Positions 7,426-60,887 of a DNA stretch of 64,000 nucleotides are shown here, one piece after another. Origin of the DNA: an uncultured Eubacteriales bacterium (lineage in GTDB: Bacteria; Bacillota; Clostridia; Oscillospirales; CAG-272); NCBI GenBank assembly GCA_934394585.1, contig CAKRQU010000007.1, forward strand, positions 3,343-67,342. Reading direction: 5' to 3'. The notes under the pieces were generated by a model. The model was given only the letters and a program-made list of their open reading frames with translations. It ran no database searches and had not been told where the DNA came from. The translations under genes and the position numbers were made by a program. Position 1 is the first letter of the stretch; each line of letters starts with the position of its first letter.

Positions 7426-7578
7426 TCTTGCCCAAAATGTTTCTTTTCCTTACGAAGGAAACGCGGGTGTACTTTTCTGTGAAGAAAAGTACCAAAAGAA
7501 ATGTTCCTCTTTGCCAAGAGGGGGCGGGCGACTGCGGTCGCCCGAGGTACGATCGCGCTTTTTACTGACAAAAAGCGC

Positions 7579-7998
7579 GGCAAAAGTCATCAAAGGAAGG
7601 CTCCTCGCCCTCCTTTGCAAACTACCTCGCACCCCGTCGAGTTAGCCGCGGAAAGCAATGCGCGGCAAGTATGTGCTATATATAGCAAATCTAAAAATCT
7701 CATGTCTATCTCTTATCACATCATCAGCCATACCGCGCGTGCGAACAAAGTATGCCGCAAAAAGCGAGCAGATTCGACGGGGTGGGTGGCTTCCGCCATG
7801 GCTTTTGATACGTTTCCCACTATAGTCAAAACTCCACCCATTGCGAGCATGACTTGATGGACATCAAGTTGGGGCGGCTAAAGCCAAAATCTGCACAGAC
7901 AAAAGTCCGTGTTAAGCGTGGATTTGAACTGCACTTCCGGTTTAGTCTATGGTTGGACTGTCGGGGCAGTATGTTCGCACGAGTCGCCGCGAGGCGAC
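7579..7998 (+). ncRNA. candidate structured ncRNA core, copy A (family unrecognised)
   Basis: Roughly 80-90% identical by eye to the cores at 13711-14131 and 60338-60757. Frame-breaking indels, conserved stems, terminal GTCGCC-GCGA-GGCGAC GNRA hairpin, long-range complementarities. Confidence 0.45.
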
Positions 7999-8165
7999 AA
8001 AGAAAGAGTTTAAAAGAGGAATTGACACATACGCGCAGCGTGTGTGTCGGCGTCGCCGAGACAGGAGTTAATTCTTTTCTCTTTTTGACTTTTGGTACTT
8101 TTCGTCAGTGAAAAGTACACCTTCGTCCCCTCGCGGGGGACAAAGTAACTTTTGTTTCTTTGCCC

Positions 8166-12663: not shown

Positions 12664-13593
12664 ATGGCTAATATTTCCGCACAGATGGTTGGCGATCTCA
12701 AGAAAAAGACAGGCGCAGGTCTTATGGACTGCAAAAAGGCGCTCGTAGAAACAAACGGCGATGTTGACGCCGCTATAAAGCTTCTCCGTGAAAAGGGTCT
12801 TTCCGTTGCCGCTAAAAAGGCAGACAGAATCGCCGCAGAGGGCGTTGTCGATATTATGAAAGAGGGCAATGTCACAGCTATGGTAGAGGTTAACTCCGAA
12901 ACCGACTTTGTTGCAAAGAACGCTACATTCGGCGAATTTGTAAAGGGCATTCTCCGCACGATAATCGCTTTCAAGCCCGCTACCGTAGAGGAGCTTTTCA
13001 CACTCAAATTCGACGGTACGGATTTCACAGTGGAAGAAGCTCTCAAGGATAAAATCTACACCATAGGCGAGAACATCTCCATCAGACGTTTTGTAATCGT
13101 TGAAGGCATCACGAGCACATATATCCACGGCGCAGGCGTTACGGGCGTTATCATCAAATTCGAAGCTGACGACGCAGCCGTAAACAATCCCGGCTTTGCC
13201 GCATTTGCAAAGAATATAGCTCTCCAGCTCGGCGCTTATGCCACACCTTATCTCGATCCCGCATCCGTTCCCGCAAACGTTATCGCAGAGGAAACGGCTA
13301 TCATCAAGGAGCAGATAAAGAACGATCCCAAGAATGCTTCCAAGCCCGATGCAATCATCGAAAAGATGGCTGCCGGTAAGCTCGGCAAGTTCTATGAGCA
13401 GAACTGCCTCACAGAGCAGACTTACGTAAAGGACGAGTCCCTTACTGTAAACAAGTATGTTGCGGCTTGCGCAAAGGAATTCGGCGGCAGCATCAAGATT
13501 GCAGGATTTGAGCGTTTTGAGCGCGGCGAAGGCATCCAGAAGCGCGAGGACAACCTCGGCGACGAAGTTGCCAAGATGATCGGCAAGAAATAA
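12664..13593 (+). CDS. tsf: translation elongation factor Ts
   Basis: MANISAQMVGDLKKKTGAGLMDCKKAL is a canonical EF-Ts N-terminus. ATG 12664 is preceded by AGGAGG. The track start at 12562 would overlap rpsB. Confidence 0.96.
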   Translation: MANISAQMVGDLKKKTGAGLMDCKKALVETNGDVDAAIKLLREKGLSVAAKKADRIAAEGVVDIMKEGNVTAMVEVNSETDFVAKNATFGEFVKGILRTIIAFKPATVEELFTLKFDGTDFTVEEALKDKIYTIGENISIRRFVIVEGITSTYIHGAGVTGVIIKFEADDAAVNNPGFAAFAKNIALQLGAYATPYLDPASVPANVIAEETAIIKEQIKNDPKNASKPDAIIEKMAAGKLGKFYEQNCLTEQTYVKDESLTVNKYVAACAKEFGGSIKIAGFERFERGEGIQKREDNLGDEVAKMIGKK

Positions 13594-13612
13594 TTTGCAT
13601 TTTATGCATAAT

Positions 13613-13640
13613 AGGGCGGCTTTTGCCGCCCTTATTTTTT
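13613..13640 (+). terminator. intrinsic terminator of tsf
   Basis: AGGGCGGC-TTTT-GCCGCCCT followed by TATTTTTT. It shares the GGGCGGC/GCCGCCC stem with the terminators at 8166-8199 and 60888-60918. Confidence 0.85.
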
Positions 13641-14442
13641 ATTTTTGCGGGAGGGTGGGTACTTTGTCCCCTATGGGGAAGCGATCGCGCTTTTGAGTGA
13701 CCAAAAGCGCGGCAAAAGTCATCAAAGGAAGGCTCCTCGCCCTCCTTTGCAAACTACCTCGCACCCCGTCGAGTTAGCCGCGGGAAGTAATGCGCGGCAA
13801 GTATGTGCTACATATAGCAAAACGAAAAAGCTTTTGTCTATCTCTCCGCGTATCATCAGCCATATCGCGCGTGCGAACAAAGTATCCCGCAAAAAGCGAG
13901 CAGATTCGACTGGGGTGGGTGGCTCCACGCCGAAAGTTTAGCTACACTTCTCACTGTAGGCTAAACTCCGACTGCGCGAGCATGGCTTGATGGACATCGA
14001 AACGGAGCAACTATAGTTCTGATTTGAGCAGGCAAAAGTCCGTGTTAAGCGTGGGTTTGAACCGCGCTTCCGGTTTAGTCTACGATGGGACTGTCGGGGC
14101 AGTATGTTCGCACGAGTCGCCGTGAGGCGACAGAAGGAGATGAAAAGAGGAATTGACACATACGCGCAGCGTGTGTGTCGGCGTCGCCGAGACAGGAGTT
14201 GCCTTCCTCTTTTTGACTTTTGGTATACTCCGTCTCGGCGACGCCGTTCAGAGGTGGCTCCGCCACCCTGAACCCTCCTCTTGGTCACGCAAAAGTACAC
14301 CTTCGTCCCCTCGCGGGGGACAAAGTAACTTTTTGATACTTTTTTACAAAAAAGTATGCCTGCCGCCACTCCCCGCAGTGGAGATTCTTTTCCCGCTTTT
14401 CTGCGGGAAGAAAAGCACACCCTCACGCAGGGACAAAAAATC
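13641..14442 (+). repeat. composite non-coding repeat element, copy B; ends approximate
   Basis: Same core and flank modules as copies A and C. Adds a perfect 15-bp stem (14179-14193 / 14232-14246) and a GGTGGC-TCC-GCCACC module. Confidence 0.85.
13711..14131 (+). ncRNA. candidate structured ncRNA core, copy B
   Basis: Aligns end to end with 7579-7998. The terminal hairpin loop is GTGA (still GNRA). The variable domain is replaced by the 8-bp hairpin AGTTTAGC/GCTAAACT (13935-13967). Confidence 0.45.
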
Positions 14443-14508
14443 CAGTATTCTATATAATATAAGTGCGGAAAAACATTCTGCACTTATTTTTATATTGGAG
14501 TGATTGAG

Positions 14509-16797: not shown

Positions 16798-16811
16798 GCC
16801 CTAATGGGATT

Positions 16812-16897
16812 TGGTGCGCTTTTTGTCAGTAAAAAGCGCGATCGTACCGCGGGCGACCGCAGTCGCCCGCCCTTTCTCTCGGCAGAGAAAGAAACAT
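16812..16897 (-). repeat. solo fragment of the repeat-element flank (hairpin modules only, no core)
   Basis: The reverse complement matches 7497-7578 of copy A: TCTC..GAGA hairpin, GGGCGGGCGACTGCGGTCGCCCG hairpin, and CGCGCTTTTT-ACTGAC-AAAAAGCGCG hairpin. Confidence 0.8.
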
Positions 16898-29233: not shown

Positions 29234-29290
29234 TTGCGCATTGTATCAAACAGAAACTCCGACAGATTTTAAACGCTGTCGGAGCTTTTG
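29234..29290 (+). repeat. 57-nt hairpin repeat (copy 1), inverted copy at 40871-40927
   Basis: TTGCGCATTGTATCAAACAGAAACTCCGACAG-loop-CTGTCGGAGCTTTTG. The stems are identical to the reverse complement of 40871-40927 and the loops differ. Confidence 0.75.
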
Positions 29291-40870: not shown

Positions 40871-40927
40871 TCAAAACTCCGACAGCGCTCAAAGGCTGTC
40901 GGAGTTTTTGTTTGATACAAAGCGCAA
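40871..40927 (-). repeat. 57-nt hairpin repeat (copy 2), acting as a bidirectional terminator between convergent genes
   Basis: AAAACTCCGACAG-loop-CTGTCGGAGTTTTTG. The reverse complement aligns with 29234-29290. Confidence 0.75.
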
Positions 40928-58802: not shown

Positions 58803-60131
58803 ATGAAAAGATTAATAACTCTTGTTCTTGCACTTGTTCTTTGCCTGTCCGTGCTTGTAGCCTGCGGAAACGAACCCGCCGACACAACTTCAAAGCTCGA
58901 TCTTGCAAAAGAATATCTTTTTACAATGTATAAAAACTCTTCCGAGAAAGTTCTCAGAGATTTTAACCGCGTAAACAAGCTCAATATCGACGGTCAGTCT
59001 TTTGATGTGGAATGGACCGTGGAAATCACAGCCGGCGCCGCAGACAGCGTTAAAGTAGTTGCGGGCGATGGCAATACAGTAACAATAGACGTTACCGAAA
59101 ATCCCGAAGAAGAAATAAAATTCAATCTCGTCGGCACTCTCAAAGACGGCGACAAGACTGAAAAAGTAAGCTTTTCTCACTATGTTCCCGCAGTGGAAAA
59201 GGCAGGCGGCATAGAGCAGGTTAAGGAAGTTAAGGCAGATACCGCTTACAAATTCGGTCTGAAGCAGGGCAATCTTGAAAAAGATCTGTATTTCACAGGC
59301 GAAATGTCCGGCAATTACCTTGCCACCACAGATGATATAACAAAGGCTGTAAGCATATTTGCGGAAGAAGTTGAAGGCGGCTATCGTCTGTACTTCACAA
59401 AGGACGGCGCAAAGACTTATATCGATATCTATGAATACAAAGAGGGCAAAGCAGGCATCCGCCTCACGGCAGAGCCCACAGCAGTATTCACATGGAATAC
59501 AGAACTGAACCTCTTCACGGCAAATGTTATCGGTTCCGACTACTATCTCGGCACATATAATACCTACAATACGATCAGCGCAAGCGCTACGACGTATATC
59601 ACAGGAGACAATGCTTCCAAGATAGGTGTTTCTCAGTTCCCCGCATATCTTTTCACAGTGAAGCTCACAAATACAACTGTAAAAGAGCCTGCAGCAGATA
59701 CAGCTTACAAATTCATGCTCACACAGGGCAATCTTGAAAAAGATCTGTATTTCACAGGTGAAATGTCCGGAAATTATCTTGCTACATCCGAAGATGTGGC
59801 AGCAGCTGTCGATGTATACCTCGAAACAGTTGAAGGCGGCTACCGTCTGTACTTCACAAAGGAAGATGTAAAGACTTATGTCGACATTTATGAATACAAA
59901 GAGGGCAAAGCAGGCATCCGTATCACAGCAGAACCCACAGCAGTATTCACATGGAATGCAGAACTCGGCATTCTCACGGCAAATGTTATCGGTTCCGATT
60001 ACTACCTCGGCACATACAATACCTACAATACGATCAGCGCAAGCTCTACGACGTATATAACTGGCGACAATGCTTCCAAAATAGGCATTTCTCAGTTCCC
60101 CGCATATCTTGTTACCGTTGGTGTAAACTGA
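58803..60131 (+). CDS. lipoprotein with a tandemly duplicated ~141-aa domain, unknown function
   Basis: Lipobox LVAC-GNE. aa 145-285 and 298-438 are near-identical. Confidence 0.8.
   Translation: MKRLITLVLALVLCLSVLVACGNEPADTTSKLDLAKEYLFTMYKNSSEKVLRDFNRVNKLNIDGQSFDVEWTVEITAGAADSVKVVAGDGNTVTIDVTENPEEEIKFNLVGTLKDGDKTEKVSFSHYVPAVEKAGGIEQVKEVKADTAYKFGLKQGNLEKDLYFTGEMSGNYLATTDDITKAVSIFAEEVEGGYRLYFTKDGAKTYIDIYEYKEGKAGIRLTAEPTAVFTWNTELNLFTANVIGSDYYLGTYNTYNTISASATTYITGDNASKIGVSQFPAYLFTVKLTNTTVKEPAADTAYKFMLTQGNLEKDLYFTGEMSGNYLATSEDVAAAVDVYLETVEGGYRLYFTKEDVKTYVDIYEYKEGKAGIRITAEPTAVFTWNAELGILTANVIGSDYYLGTYNTYNTISASSTTYITGDNASKIGISQFPAYLVTVGVN
59235..60116 (+). repeat. in-frame tandem duplication (period 459 nt) inside the lipoprotein gene
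   Basis: 59235-59657 and 59694-60116 align without gaps at high identity. Confidence 0.9.
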
Positions 60132-60180: not shown

Positions 60181-60337
60181 GCGTATTGGAGTGCAGTTTT
60201 TTCGTTCCCTTCGAGGGGACGGAGGGGTATACTTTTTGCAAAAAAGTATCAAAAAAAGAAGTTACTTTCTCTACCGAGAAACGAGGTCGCGCTTTTCACT
60301 GACGAAGAGGAGGGCTCAAGGTGGCAGAGCCACTTCT

Positions 60338-60757
60338 GTCGCCTCGCGGCGACTCGTGCGAACATACTGCCACGACAGTCCGACCATAGATTAAACCGGA
60401 AGCGCGGTTCAGACCCCCCACTTAACACGGACTTTTGCCTGTTCAGACTTAGGCTTTAGCCGCCCCGTTTCGATGTTCATCAAGCCATGCTCGCTCCGTC
60501 GGAGTTTAGTCTATAGTGGGAAGTATATCAAAAGCCACGGCAGGAGCCAATCCACCCCGTCGAATCTGCTCGCTTTTTGCGGCATACTATGTTCGCACGC
60601 GCGGTATGGCTGATGATGCGCGGAGAGATAGACAAGGGCCTTTTGATTTGCTATATATAGCACTCACTTGCCGCGCATTACTTTTTGCGGCTAACTCGAC
60701 GGGGTGCGAGGTAGTTTGCAATGGAGGGCGAGGAGCCTTCCTTTGATGACTTTTGCC
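60338..60757 (-). ncRNA. candidate structured ncRNA core, copy C
   Basis: 420 nt. The reverse complement is collinear with 7579-7998. Terminal hairpin GTCGCC-GCGA-GGCGAC. It lacks the ~115-nt X module found 3' of cores A and B. Confidence 0.45.
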
Positions 60758-60887
60758 GCGCTTTTTGTCAGTAAAAAGCGCGACCCCGTCCACGGGCGAA
60801 CGCAGTCGCCCGCCCCTCTCTTGGTAAAGAGAAACTTCTTTTTGGTACTTTTCGTCAGTGAAAAGTACACCTTCGTCCCCACAGGGA

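Follow-up and report, generated by a model that had tools for sequence, protein, structure and literature searches.

The analysed window, a 64,000-nt stretch of contig CAKRQU010000007.1 from an uncultured Eubacteriales bacterium, carries three copies of a repeat, referred to here as A, B and C, of which copy B lies between two genes read as tsf and asd. The host assembly is metagenome-derived, comprises 1.59 Mb in 43 contigs and is 90% complete. The 451-nt core of copy B has 95 full-length and 39 partial matches in this assembly, where 110 copy 3′-ends were identified and the element profile covers at least 62 kb (3.9%); copy B belongs to a mosaic, non-coding repeat family that has more than 100 copies and occurs in one genus. 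Many contigs start or end within the repeat (e.g., C22:1-106, C23:1-106, C17:1-206, and C1:1-381 of assembly G000), thus the true copy number exceeds this count and the repeat is a main cause of fragmentation in the metagenome assemblies of the genus.

Each copy consists of a core of about 450 nt placed between mirror-image arms of hairpin modules. In the consensus of 88 copies with their flanks, an outer hairpin, G[CT][GA]CTTTT-N6-8-AAAAG[..]C, is followed by CAAAAGTCA, a purine-rich hairpin and the core, after which come a mirror-image hairpin (AAAAGAGGAA/TTCCTCTTTT), TGACTTTTG and the outer hairpin again. Given this mirrored order, the ends are long hairpin-rich inverted repeats, each of which resembles an intrinsic terminator pointing outward from the core. 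The sequences and coordinates quoted in a first-pass annotation of this stretch were all found to be correct when checked against the window, and the features of copy B and its sister copies are as follows.

13659–14418 (boundaries approximate), plus strand: whole composite at the tsf–asd intergenic locus, in which the core is accompanied by mirror-image hairpin arms and by additional hairpins in the flanks
13687–13710, plus strand: outer 5′ hairpin H1, GCGCTTTTG-AGTGAC-CAAAAGCGC, with covariation
13713–13749, plus strand: inner 5′ terminal inverted repeat, CAAAAGTCA and the hairpin CAAAGGAAGG...CCCTCCTTTG, which mirrors 14143–14222 in the 88-copy consensus
13761–13917, plus strand: 5′ domain closed by the long-range helix 13761–13781/13896–13917, with covariation
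13920–13975, plus strand: “variable domain” with the private 8-bp hairpin of copy B, 13935–13942/13960–13967
13976–14131, plus strand: 3′ half of the core, conserved in all copies and ending in the GNRA-capped hairpin GTCGCC-GTGA-GGCGAC (14116–14131)
14143–14222, plus strand: terminal hairpin, in which T5 AAAAGAGGAA (14143–14152) pairs with T3 TTCCTCTTTT (14204–14213), and TGACTTTTG comes next; unit 1 lies in the hairpin loop
14150–14201, plus strand: mini-repeat unit 1, composed of GGAATT, an 11-bp hairpin with GCA triloop (14155–14179), the box GGCGTCGCCGAGAC (14180–14193) and AGGAGTT
14226–14284, minus strand: mini-repeat unit 2, inverted, with its box at 14232–14245 and the hairpin GTTCAGAGGTGGC-TCC-GCCACCCTGAAC at 14246–14273, lying within the 5′ arm of the outer 3′ hairpin
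14285–14325, plus strand: remainder of the outer hairpin, its 3′ arm (…GGTCACGCAAAAGTAC), followed by the next hairpin of the arm, TCCCC-TCGC-GGGGA (repeat family D6, genome-wide consensus)
7535–8142, plus strand: copy A, with unit 1 and an intact outer hairpin, without unit 2
13670–14244, plus strand: copy B
60264–60804, minus strand: copy C, in which the core is joined directly to the unit-2 hairpin, with deletion of both boxes and of the terminal hairpin

The inner 5′ terminal inverted repeat was read by the scan as terminator-like on the minus strand, and the arm segment 14285–14325 is likewise terminator-like on that strand. No pair in the family covaries more strongly than the one closing the loop of H1 (C-G 33, G-C 29, and T-A 18), and the H1 stem switches between GCGC and GTAC between species. 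In addition to the three copies, a solo 68-nt left-arm fragment without a core lies at 16810–16877, directly past a tRNA-Thr/tRNA-Tyr pair, and it is 93% complementary to 7517–7584.

The core was found in five of the six genomes of the genus and was absent from the 35 other genera searched, thus the family, judged from these searches, is confined to one Acutalibacteraceae genus, the members of which are human-gut metagenome-assembled genomes that include “Candidatus Apopatosoma intestinale”. Two matches outside the genus, found by scanning the collection, lie inside response-regulator-like and ABC-type genes, as judged by the translated sequence, and were dismissed as chance. Protein coding was ruled out, because the variability has no period-3 signal and no open frame is conserved; the “multi-copy open reading frame families” are spurious frames within the repeat. 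Despite the 86% mean pairwise identity of the copies, 151 of the 448 core columns are invariant. A known Rfam RNA family was rejected at both gathering and permissive thresholds: the former gave just four tRNAs in the window and a search of 13550–14500 at E ≤ 10 returned only noise well under the thresholds. A group II intron without an open reading frame, of class C, which targets terminators, was rejected in the absence of any Intron_gpII or D1–D4 match at E ≤ 10 and of a reverse transcriptase in the genome, and the GNRA hairpin at 14116–14131, inspected by eye, has neither the lower stem nor the bulge of a domain V. A diversity-generating retroelement was likewise discarded, as about 26% of the substitutions are away from A at an A content of 25%, and again no reverse transcriptase was found.

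Between the two conserved halves of its core, copy B carries AGTTTAGC (13935–13942) and GCTAAACT (13960–13967), and when the stretch 13920–13975 was folded alone (−15.8 kcal/mol, z = −2.6), the perfect 8-bp hairpin of these arms was formed. The first-pass annotation took this stretch for a peripheral RNA helix, the sequence of which changes from copy to copy while its hairpin potential is retained. Comparison of the copies contradicted this view by the very test that the annotation had put forward. The homologous stretches of copies A and C gave z-scores of −1.4 and −0.9, respectively, and that of C has no hairpin at this place. Only eight of the 88 copies have the perfect 8-bp stem, no covariation of the arms was detected among them, and the mean folding energy of the domain (−6.4 kcal/mol) is that of shuffled sequences (−6.2 kcal/mol). 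The commonest 5′ arms are GCTTTTGA (28 of 88) and AGTT[CT]AGC (24 of 88), the commonest 3′ arm is GCTAAACT (45 of 88), and the most frequent combination, GCTTTTGA with GCTAAACT (16 copies), pairs at five of the eight positions. On average, 5.67 positions of the arms are paired, compared with 5.75 when the 3′ arms were randomly reassigned among the copies, and mutual information revealed no long-range pairing partners of the variable blocks either. The TTTTGA/TCAAAA hairpin described for copy A does exist, but it consists of six A–T-rich pairs and is rare, its TCAAAACT arm being present in three of the 88 copies.

Instead of a helix, the alignment revealed alternative short blocks recombining in many ways, such as GAAAGTTTAGC/CATGGCTTTTGA/GAAGCCAAAGC or GACGGAG/GACTATG/ACCAAAT/ACCCATG. 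The core contains 90 sites with a minor allele of at least 15%, for which pairwise r2 falls from 0.38 at adjacent sites to the no-linkage value of 0.012 by about 20 nt, and the four-gamete combinations are complete for essentially every pair of sites more than 12 nt apart. Copy C had been suspected of being chimeric; it is, and so is every other copy. These data show that the variable domain is a stretch where alternative blocks of 5–15 nt swap among copies and not a helix under structural selection. As the blocks are freely reshuffled, the clean hairpin of copy B is one lucky combination of complementary blocks. Short-patch gene conversion would be the cause of the block exchange. In the family of the sister species, a 9-bp hairpin, CACGCCCGC/GCGGGCGTG, is well preserved at the homologous place, suggesting that an ancestral helix may have decayed in the host species.

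Folded alone, the 3′ module of copy B (14140–14250) reached −61.5 kcal/mol (z = −8.4), mainly through the stem between the two boxes, and its opposite strand folded nearly as well (z = −7.9) because the parts of the module are palindromic. The hairpin GACACATACG/CGTGTGTGTC (14155–14179), previously described as a 10-bp stem with a CGCAG loop, is present, although an 11-bp stem that includes one T·G pair and is capped by a GCA triloop describes it better. The 15-bp stem formed by CGGCGTCGCCGAGAC (14179–14193) and GTCTCGGCGACGCCG (14232–14246) had been noted in copy B only, which holds within the window and not in the genome, where both arms occur in 13 of the 110 copies. Architecture counts were obtained by sorting all 110 copy 3′-ends, and they confirmed that the element is modular with optional 3′ modules. 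Fifty-one ends have a plain terminal hairpin with a 4–6-nt loop, similar to an intrinsic terminator and devoid of any unit. In 35 A-type ends, a 46–50-nt insert occupies the loop of the terminal hairpin and the outer hairpin is intact, while 13 B-type ends (11 and a further two at contig ends) have the loop insert together with a 52-nt insert that splits the 5′ arm of the outer hairpin. Three ends carry the second insert only, in another three the two inserts are fused by a deletion that took out the 3′ arm of the terminal hairpin, and the few remaining ones, copy C among them, have larger deletions. The 3′ hairpin pointed out earlier (the “GACACA hairpin”) is a genuine structure maintained by compensatory change. 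The stem of the terminal hairpin, a different structure, also showed compensatory changes in the sister species.

The order in which these architectures arose could be deduced from the outer hairpin, GTACTTTTC-N6-GAAAAGTAC, which is intact in the A-type copies and in the 51 unit-free ones and is split by the 52-nt unit in the B-type. Since the intact hairpin is both the majority state and the state of the 5′ arm, the B-type is derived and copy A is not a deletion derivative of B, as had been proposed; the B-type arose from the A-type by the gain of unit 2. Read on its own strand, the unit consists of a GAGGA-type leader, a 25–28-nt hairpin, GGCGTCGCCGAGAC and RGGAGT, altogether 46–52 nt, and the box GGCGTCGCCGAGAC is the core of a 19-bp near-palindrome, GTSTCGGCGWCGCCGASAC. 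As the two boxes of copy B are inverted copies, they pair over 15 or more bases and thus produce the 15-bp stem. These observations show that the 3′ module consists of two copies of a separate mini-repeat in opposite orientation. The initially tempting reading of copy B has therefore been corrected at two points: the “variable helix” is non-structural, and the “15-bp stem” is two mini-repeat copies.

The unit also exists as an independent repeat. Unit 1 has 49 genomic copies, all in the loop of the terminal hairpin, the 34 copies of unit 2 occupy mirror positions in both arms of the element, and a third hairpin type was found in the left arms of 19 copies of the host genome. The box occurs 82 times in the host genome and 34–93 times in each of three sister genomes; a fourth has a single box and the core-free genome has none, and at most seven occurrences were counted in 60 other genera of the family. 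In sister species, the unit occupies the loop of another hairpin of the core, and tandem head-to-tail arrays of 2–4 units with a 48–49-nt period are located behind genes and inside cores. Such arrays lie at L212:411-587 (contig C2 of genome G002), L213, L214 (G002:C18), L215 (G002:C61), and L216 (contig C4 of genome G001); one begins right at the stop codon of a gene and another is within a core element. The units are near-identical inside an array, while their hairpin stems are entirely different between arrays. The sequence in front of the box occurs as 56 distinct 25-mers, 26 of which fold in an 11-3-11 register; in these 26, six stem positions covary, position 7 is T·G in 26/26, and 23 of the 26 loops are GNA closed by C-G. 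This pattern marks a hairpin that is read on one strand, which may be RNA or single-stranded DNA.

An RNA-like, strand-specific fold of the core was supported for its 5′ domain. In the helix 13761–13781/13896–13917, seven consecutive pairs occur in two or three Watson–Crick types each with almost no mismatches among 135 distinct sequences from five genomes, and three positions are fixed or nearly fixed G·T. The fixed G·T pairs would be A·C mismatches on the other strand, which indicates that the fold is strand-specific, and the 5′ domain keeps it through compensatory changes. In the 3′ half of the core, wobble-keeping and pair-breaking transitions were about equally common in a hand tally. The central 200 nt of the core, including the variable domain, are largely replaced between species.

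The mobility of the element was assessed by comparing the tsf–asd locus with seven conspecific metagenome contigs, in which the upstream protein is 98–99% identical. Two of these contigs are empty and have one small hairpin, four carry a 3′-truncated copy in the opposite orientation, and one diverges from the rest directly past the terminator of the upstream gene. Three states were observed at this locus in one species (window 13594–14499 vs. L105–L110): empty, filled with a full plus-strand copy, and filled with a 3′-truncated minus-strand copy. Compared with the two empty-site contigs (L108 and L109), the composite 13659–14418 stands in place of about 47 nt of the empty allele, which has one hairpin, GTACCTTGGAGCAAAAGTAC; the composite has GTAC (13659–13662) at one end and GAAAAGCAC (14410–14418) at the other. 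The opposite-orientation copy is 87–88% identical to B, that is, no closer to it than to other copies, which argues for a separate arrival, and an in situ inversion of B was rejected for the same reason. The four orthologous truncated copies differ by 2–5%, in patches of several bases, and the coding DNA flanking them differs by 0.5–1.5%, except for about 6% downstream in one contig. In this contig (L106), the divergence of the downstream gene stands beside about 1% upstream, suggesting imported DNA. Regarding the gene context, 49% of the copies are flanked by convergent genes and 7% by divergent ones, whereas each class makes up about 19% of the intergenic regions genome-wide. No bias was detected in relation to the direction of transcription (21 sense vs. 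17 antisense copies between tandem genes) or, by GC skew proxies, to the replication strand (33 vs. 31).

Considering these results, we regard it as fairly probable that this mosaic hairpin repeat with its mini-repeat units is a selfish non-autonomous mobile element, which is the most likely explanation of those considered. Such an element would settle in hairpin-rich regions downstream of genes and would be copied or moved through a single-stranded intermediate, either RNA or single-stranded DNA, the fold of which would be read by some enzyme. Reading of a single-stranded intermediate by an enzyme would explain why about one third of the core positions are invariant and why the 5′ domain has a strand-specific fold. 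Several observations weigh against this explanation. The Y1, TnpB, reverse transcriptase, IS110 and rve families are absent from the host genome, the Y2 search of this genome was empty, with its control also silent, and the genome has no multi-copy protein family. Y1 (PF01797) is missing from the element-bearing genomes G000, G001, and G003 and is represented by two genes in the element-free G004, thus its presence in the genus is anticorrelated with the element; TnpB (PF07282) is absent from all six genomes of the genus, none of which has a gene of the IS110 family either. The host assembly, which is incomplete, yielded no parent insertion sequence with ends like those of the element. Since this assembly is 90% complete and broken at the repeats, the absence of a mover gene is weak evidence, as the gene may simply be missing. 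In addition, no target-site duplication could be defined; the comparison of filled and empty sites places the composite inside a hairpin without a clear duplication. Recent duplicates are few: the median nearest-neighbour identity is 91%, only four of the 88 copies reach at least 98%, and the closest relative of copy B within the genome is only 89–90% identical to it. With so few newly made copies, the differences between strains could be old alleles spread by recombination instead of fresh insertions. Finally, within the host genome the 3′ half of the core has no double compensatory changes, and no sigma-70-like promoter was found in or before the core of copy B.

The repeat could alternatively belong purely to the DNA level, like elements of the BIME or BOX type, with the hairpins acting as double-stranded palindromes that the host has co-opted as protein-binding sites and bidirectional terminators, and with spreading and reshuffling by homologous recombination and replication slippage only, requiring neither a dedicated enzyme nor a single-stranded intermediate. 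This possibility, which we consider doubtful but worth keeping in mind, would agree with the terminator-like hairpins at both ends, the enrichment of copies behind genes, the lack of a transposase, the recombination mosaic and the tandem unit arrays, which are compatible with slippage, and the 19-bp near-palindromic box is of a type to which dimeric proteins bind. However, the fixed G·T pairs of the core and the invariant T·G of the unit would both be A·C on the other strand and point to a specific folded single strand, and recombination alone poorly explains a locus that is either empty or filled in plus or minus orientation by copies 87% alike. A different extension of the mobile-element explanation is that the repeat represents a new class of non-autonomous element, in which the 5′ domain, as RNA or folded single-stranded DNA, would partner an unrecognised host-encoded enzyme, the 48-nt unit would act as a recombination or priming site, and the reshuffling would result from the copying itself, for example, from template switching, rather than from ordinary gene conversion; we put this forward tentatively and hold it to be unlikely.

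The first-pass annotation interpreted the core as a structured RNA gene family with a drifting peripheral helix and optional expansion modules, copy A being truncated from B. The covariation-supported strand-specific fold of the 5′ domain, the well-kept 9-bp hairpin of the sister species, the placement of the units in hairpin loops, similar to expansion segments, and the folding of copy B's own variable domain (z = −2.6) are all consistent with an RNA gene. Nevertheless, we judge this interpretation to be quite improbable, because across the 88 copies the arms do not covary and the domain is no more stable than shuffles, the orientation is random relative to both the neighbouring genes and the replication proxies, no promoter was found, the intact outer hairpin of the A-type makes B the derived form, and more than 100 copies with terminal inverted repeats are unlike the organisation of RNA genes. 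It could also be supposed that the variable domain is a programmable guide in the style of omega-RNA or bridge-RNA with a different target in each copy, as its blocks differ between copies within a conserved structured molecule. These blocks are a few shared alleles and not unique to each copy, the genus has no gene of the TnpB or IS110 families, and Rfam gave no match to omega-RNA or HEARO, which makes a guide function highly improbable.

Two further repeats were noted in the window. A 55-nt inverted pair (29234–29288 and 40873–40927, 87% identity), each arm of which has its own hairpin (AAACTCCGACAG...CTGTCGGAG followed by a T-rich stretch), resembles a shared terminator-type module unrelated to the big repeat. 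In the gene region upstream of copy C, two adjoining direct repeats, one of 116 nt (82% identity) and one of 296 nt (89% identity), both spaced by 459 nt, were found at 59235–60118, which may be an internally duplicated gene.

Among the known systems, the closest analogue in organisation is the pneumococcal BOX element, the boxA-(boxB)n-boxC composite of Streptococcus pneumoniae and S. suis (Croucher et al., 2011; PMC3049150). Both are composite interspersed repeats, the end modules of which are related by inverted repeats, and both have an optional internal module (boxB in BOX) that can be absent or tandemly repeated. Both would form predicted stem-loops if transcribed, are enriched downstream of coding sequences and have no transposase of their own (PMC3049150 for BOX). 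In our case, the number of units per copy is 0, 1 or 2, and arrays of 2–4 occur in the sister species; the likeness is one of organisation only, as no sequence similarity is apparent, and it was judged without direct comparison to BOX sequences. Unlike BOX, the element described here has a core of 450 nt that contains invariant blocks and adopts a strand-specific fold supported by covariation, multi-hairpin mirror-image arms, and a unit with a palindromic box, an invariant T·G and a GNA triloop.

Repetitive extragenic palindromic (REP) sequences, bacterial interspersed mosaic elements (BIME) and REPINs are similar in having hairpin units with a short conserved tail, high copy number, extragenic mosaic clusters behind genes and stems kept by compensatory change. 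In contrast to the REP/REPIN–RAYT system, no Y1 gene is present in the host and two other element-bearing genomes, and the element is about ten times as long as a REPIN. Miniature inverted-repeat transposable elements, such as Correia of Neisseria and RUP of pneumococcus, share with our element the terminal inverted repeats, confirmed here as CAAAAGTCA plus hairpin versus hairpin plus TGACTTTTG flanked by inverted outer hairpins, as well as the non-coding nature, the intergenic location and a presence that varies among strains. They differ from it in that neither a definable target-site duplication nor a parent insertion sequence was found here, and in that our copies are about 14% diverged with block reshuffling, as opposed to the near-identical copies of a recent burst. 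The PATE, omega-RNA and HEARO sequences of the IS200/IS605 and IscB/TnpB systems are also multi-copy, structured, non-coding and non-autonomous nucleic acids with hairpin ends; unlike these, our element is accompanied by neither a TnpB nor a Y1 gene, has no Rfam match at E ≤ 10 and has true inverted repeats as its ends. Hirao et al. reportedly described unusually stable triloop mini-hairpins of the d(GCGNAGC) type in DNA. Nearly all unit hairpins have the apex GC-GNA-GC, which recalls this motif; the resemblance concerns the motif only, and it hints at folding as single-stranded DNA and proves nothing.

Among bacterial interspersed repeats, this family stands out in that it occupies about 4% of a small genome, joins mosaic hairpin arms to a large core that is selectively conserved and folded in a strand-specific way, and consists of copies that are almost free recombinants of one another. 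Moreover, it hosts a smaller repeat with a sharp hairpin signature that is unexplained by the known enzyme families in the genome, thus identification of the reader of these hairpins could reveal a new mode of moving or copying DNA in gut Clostridia.

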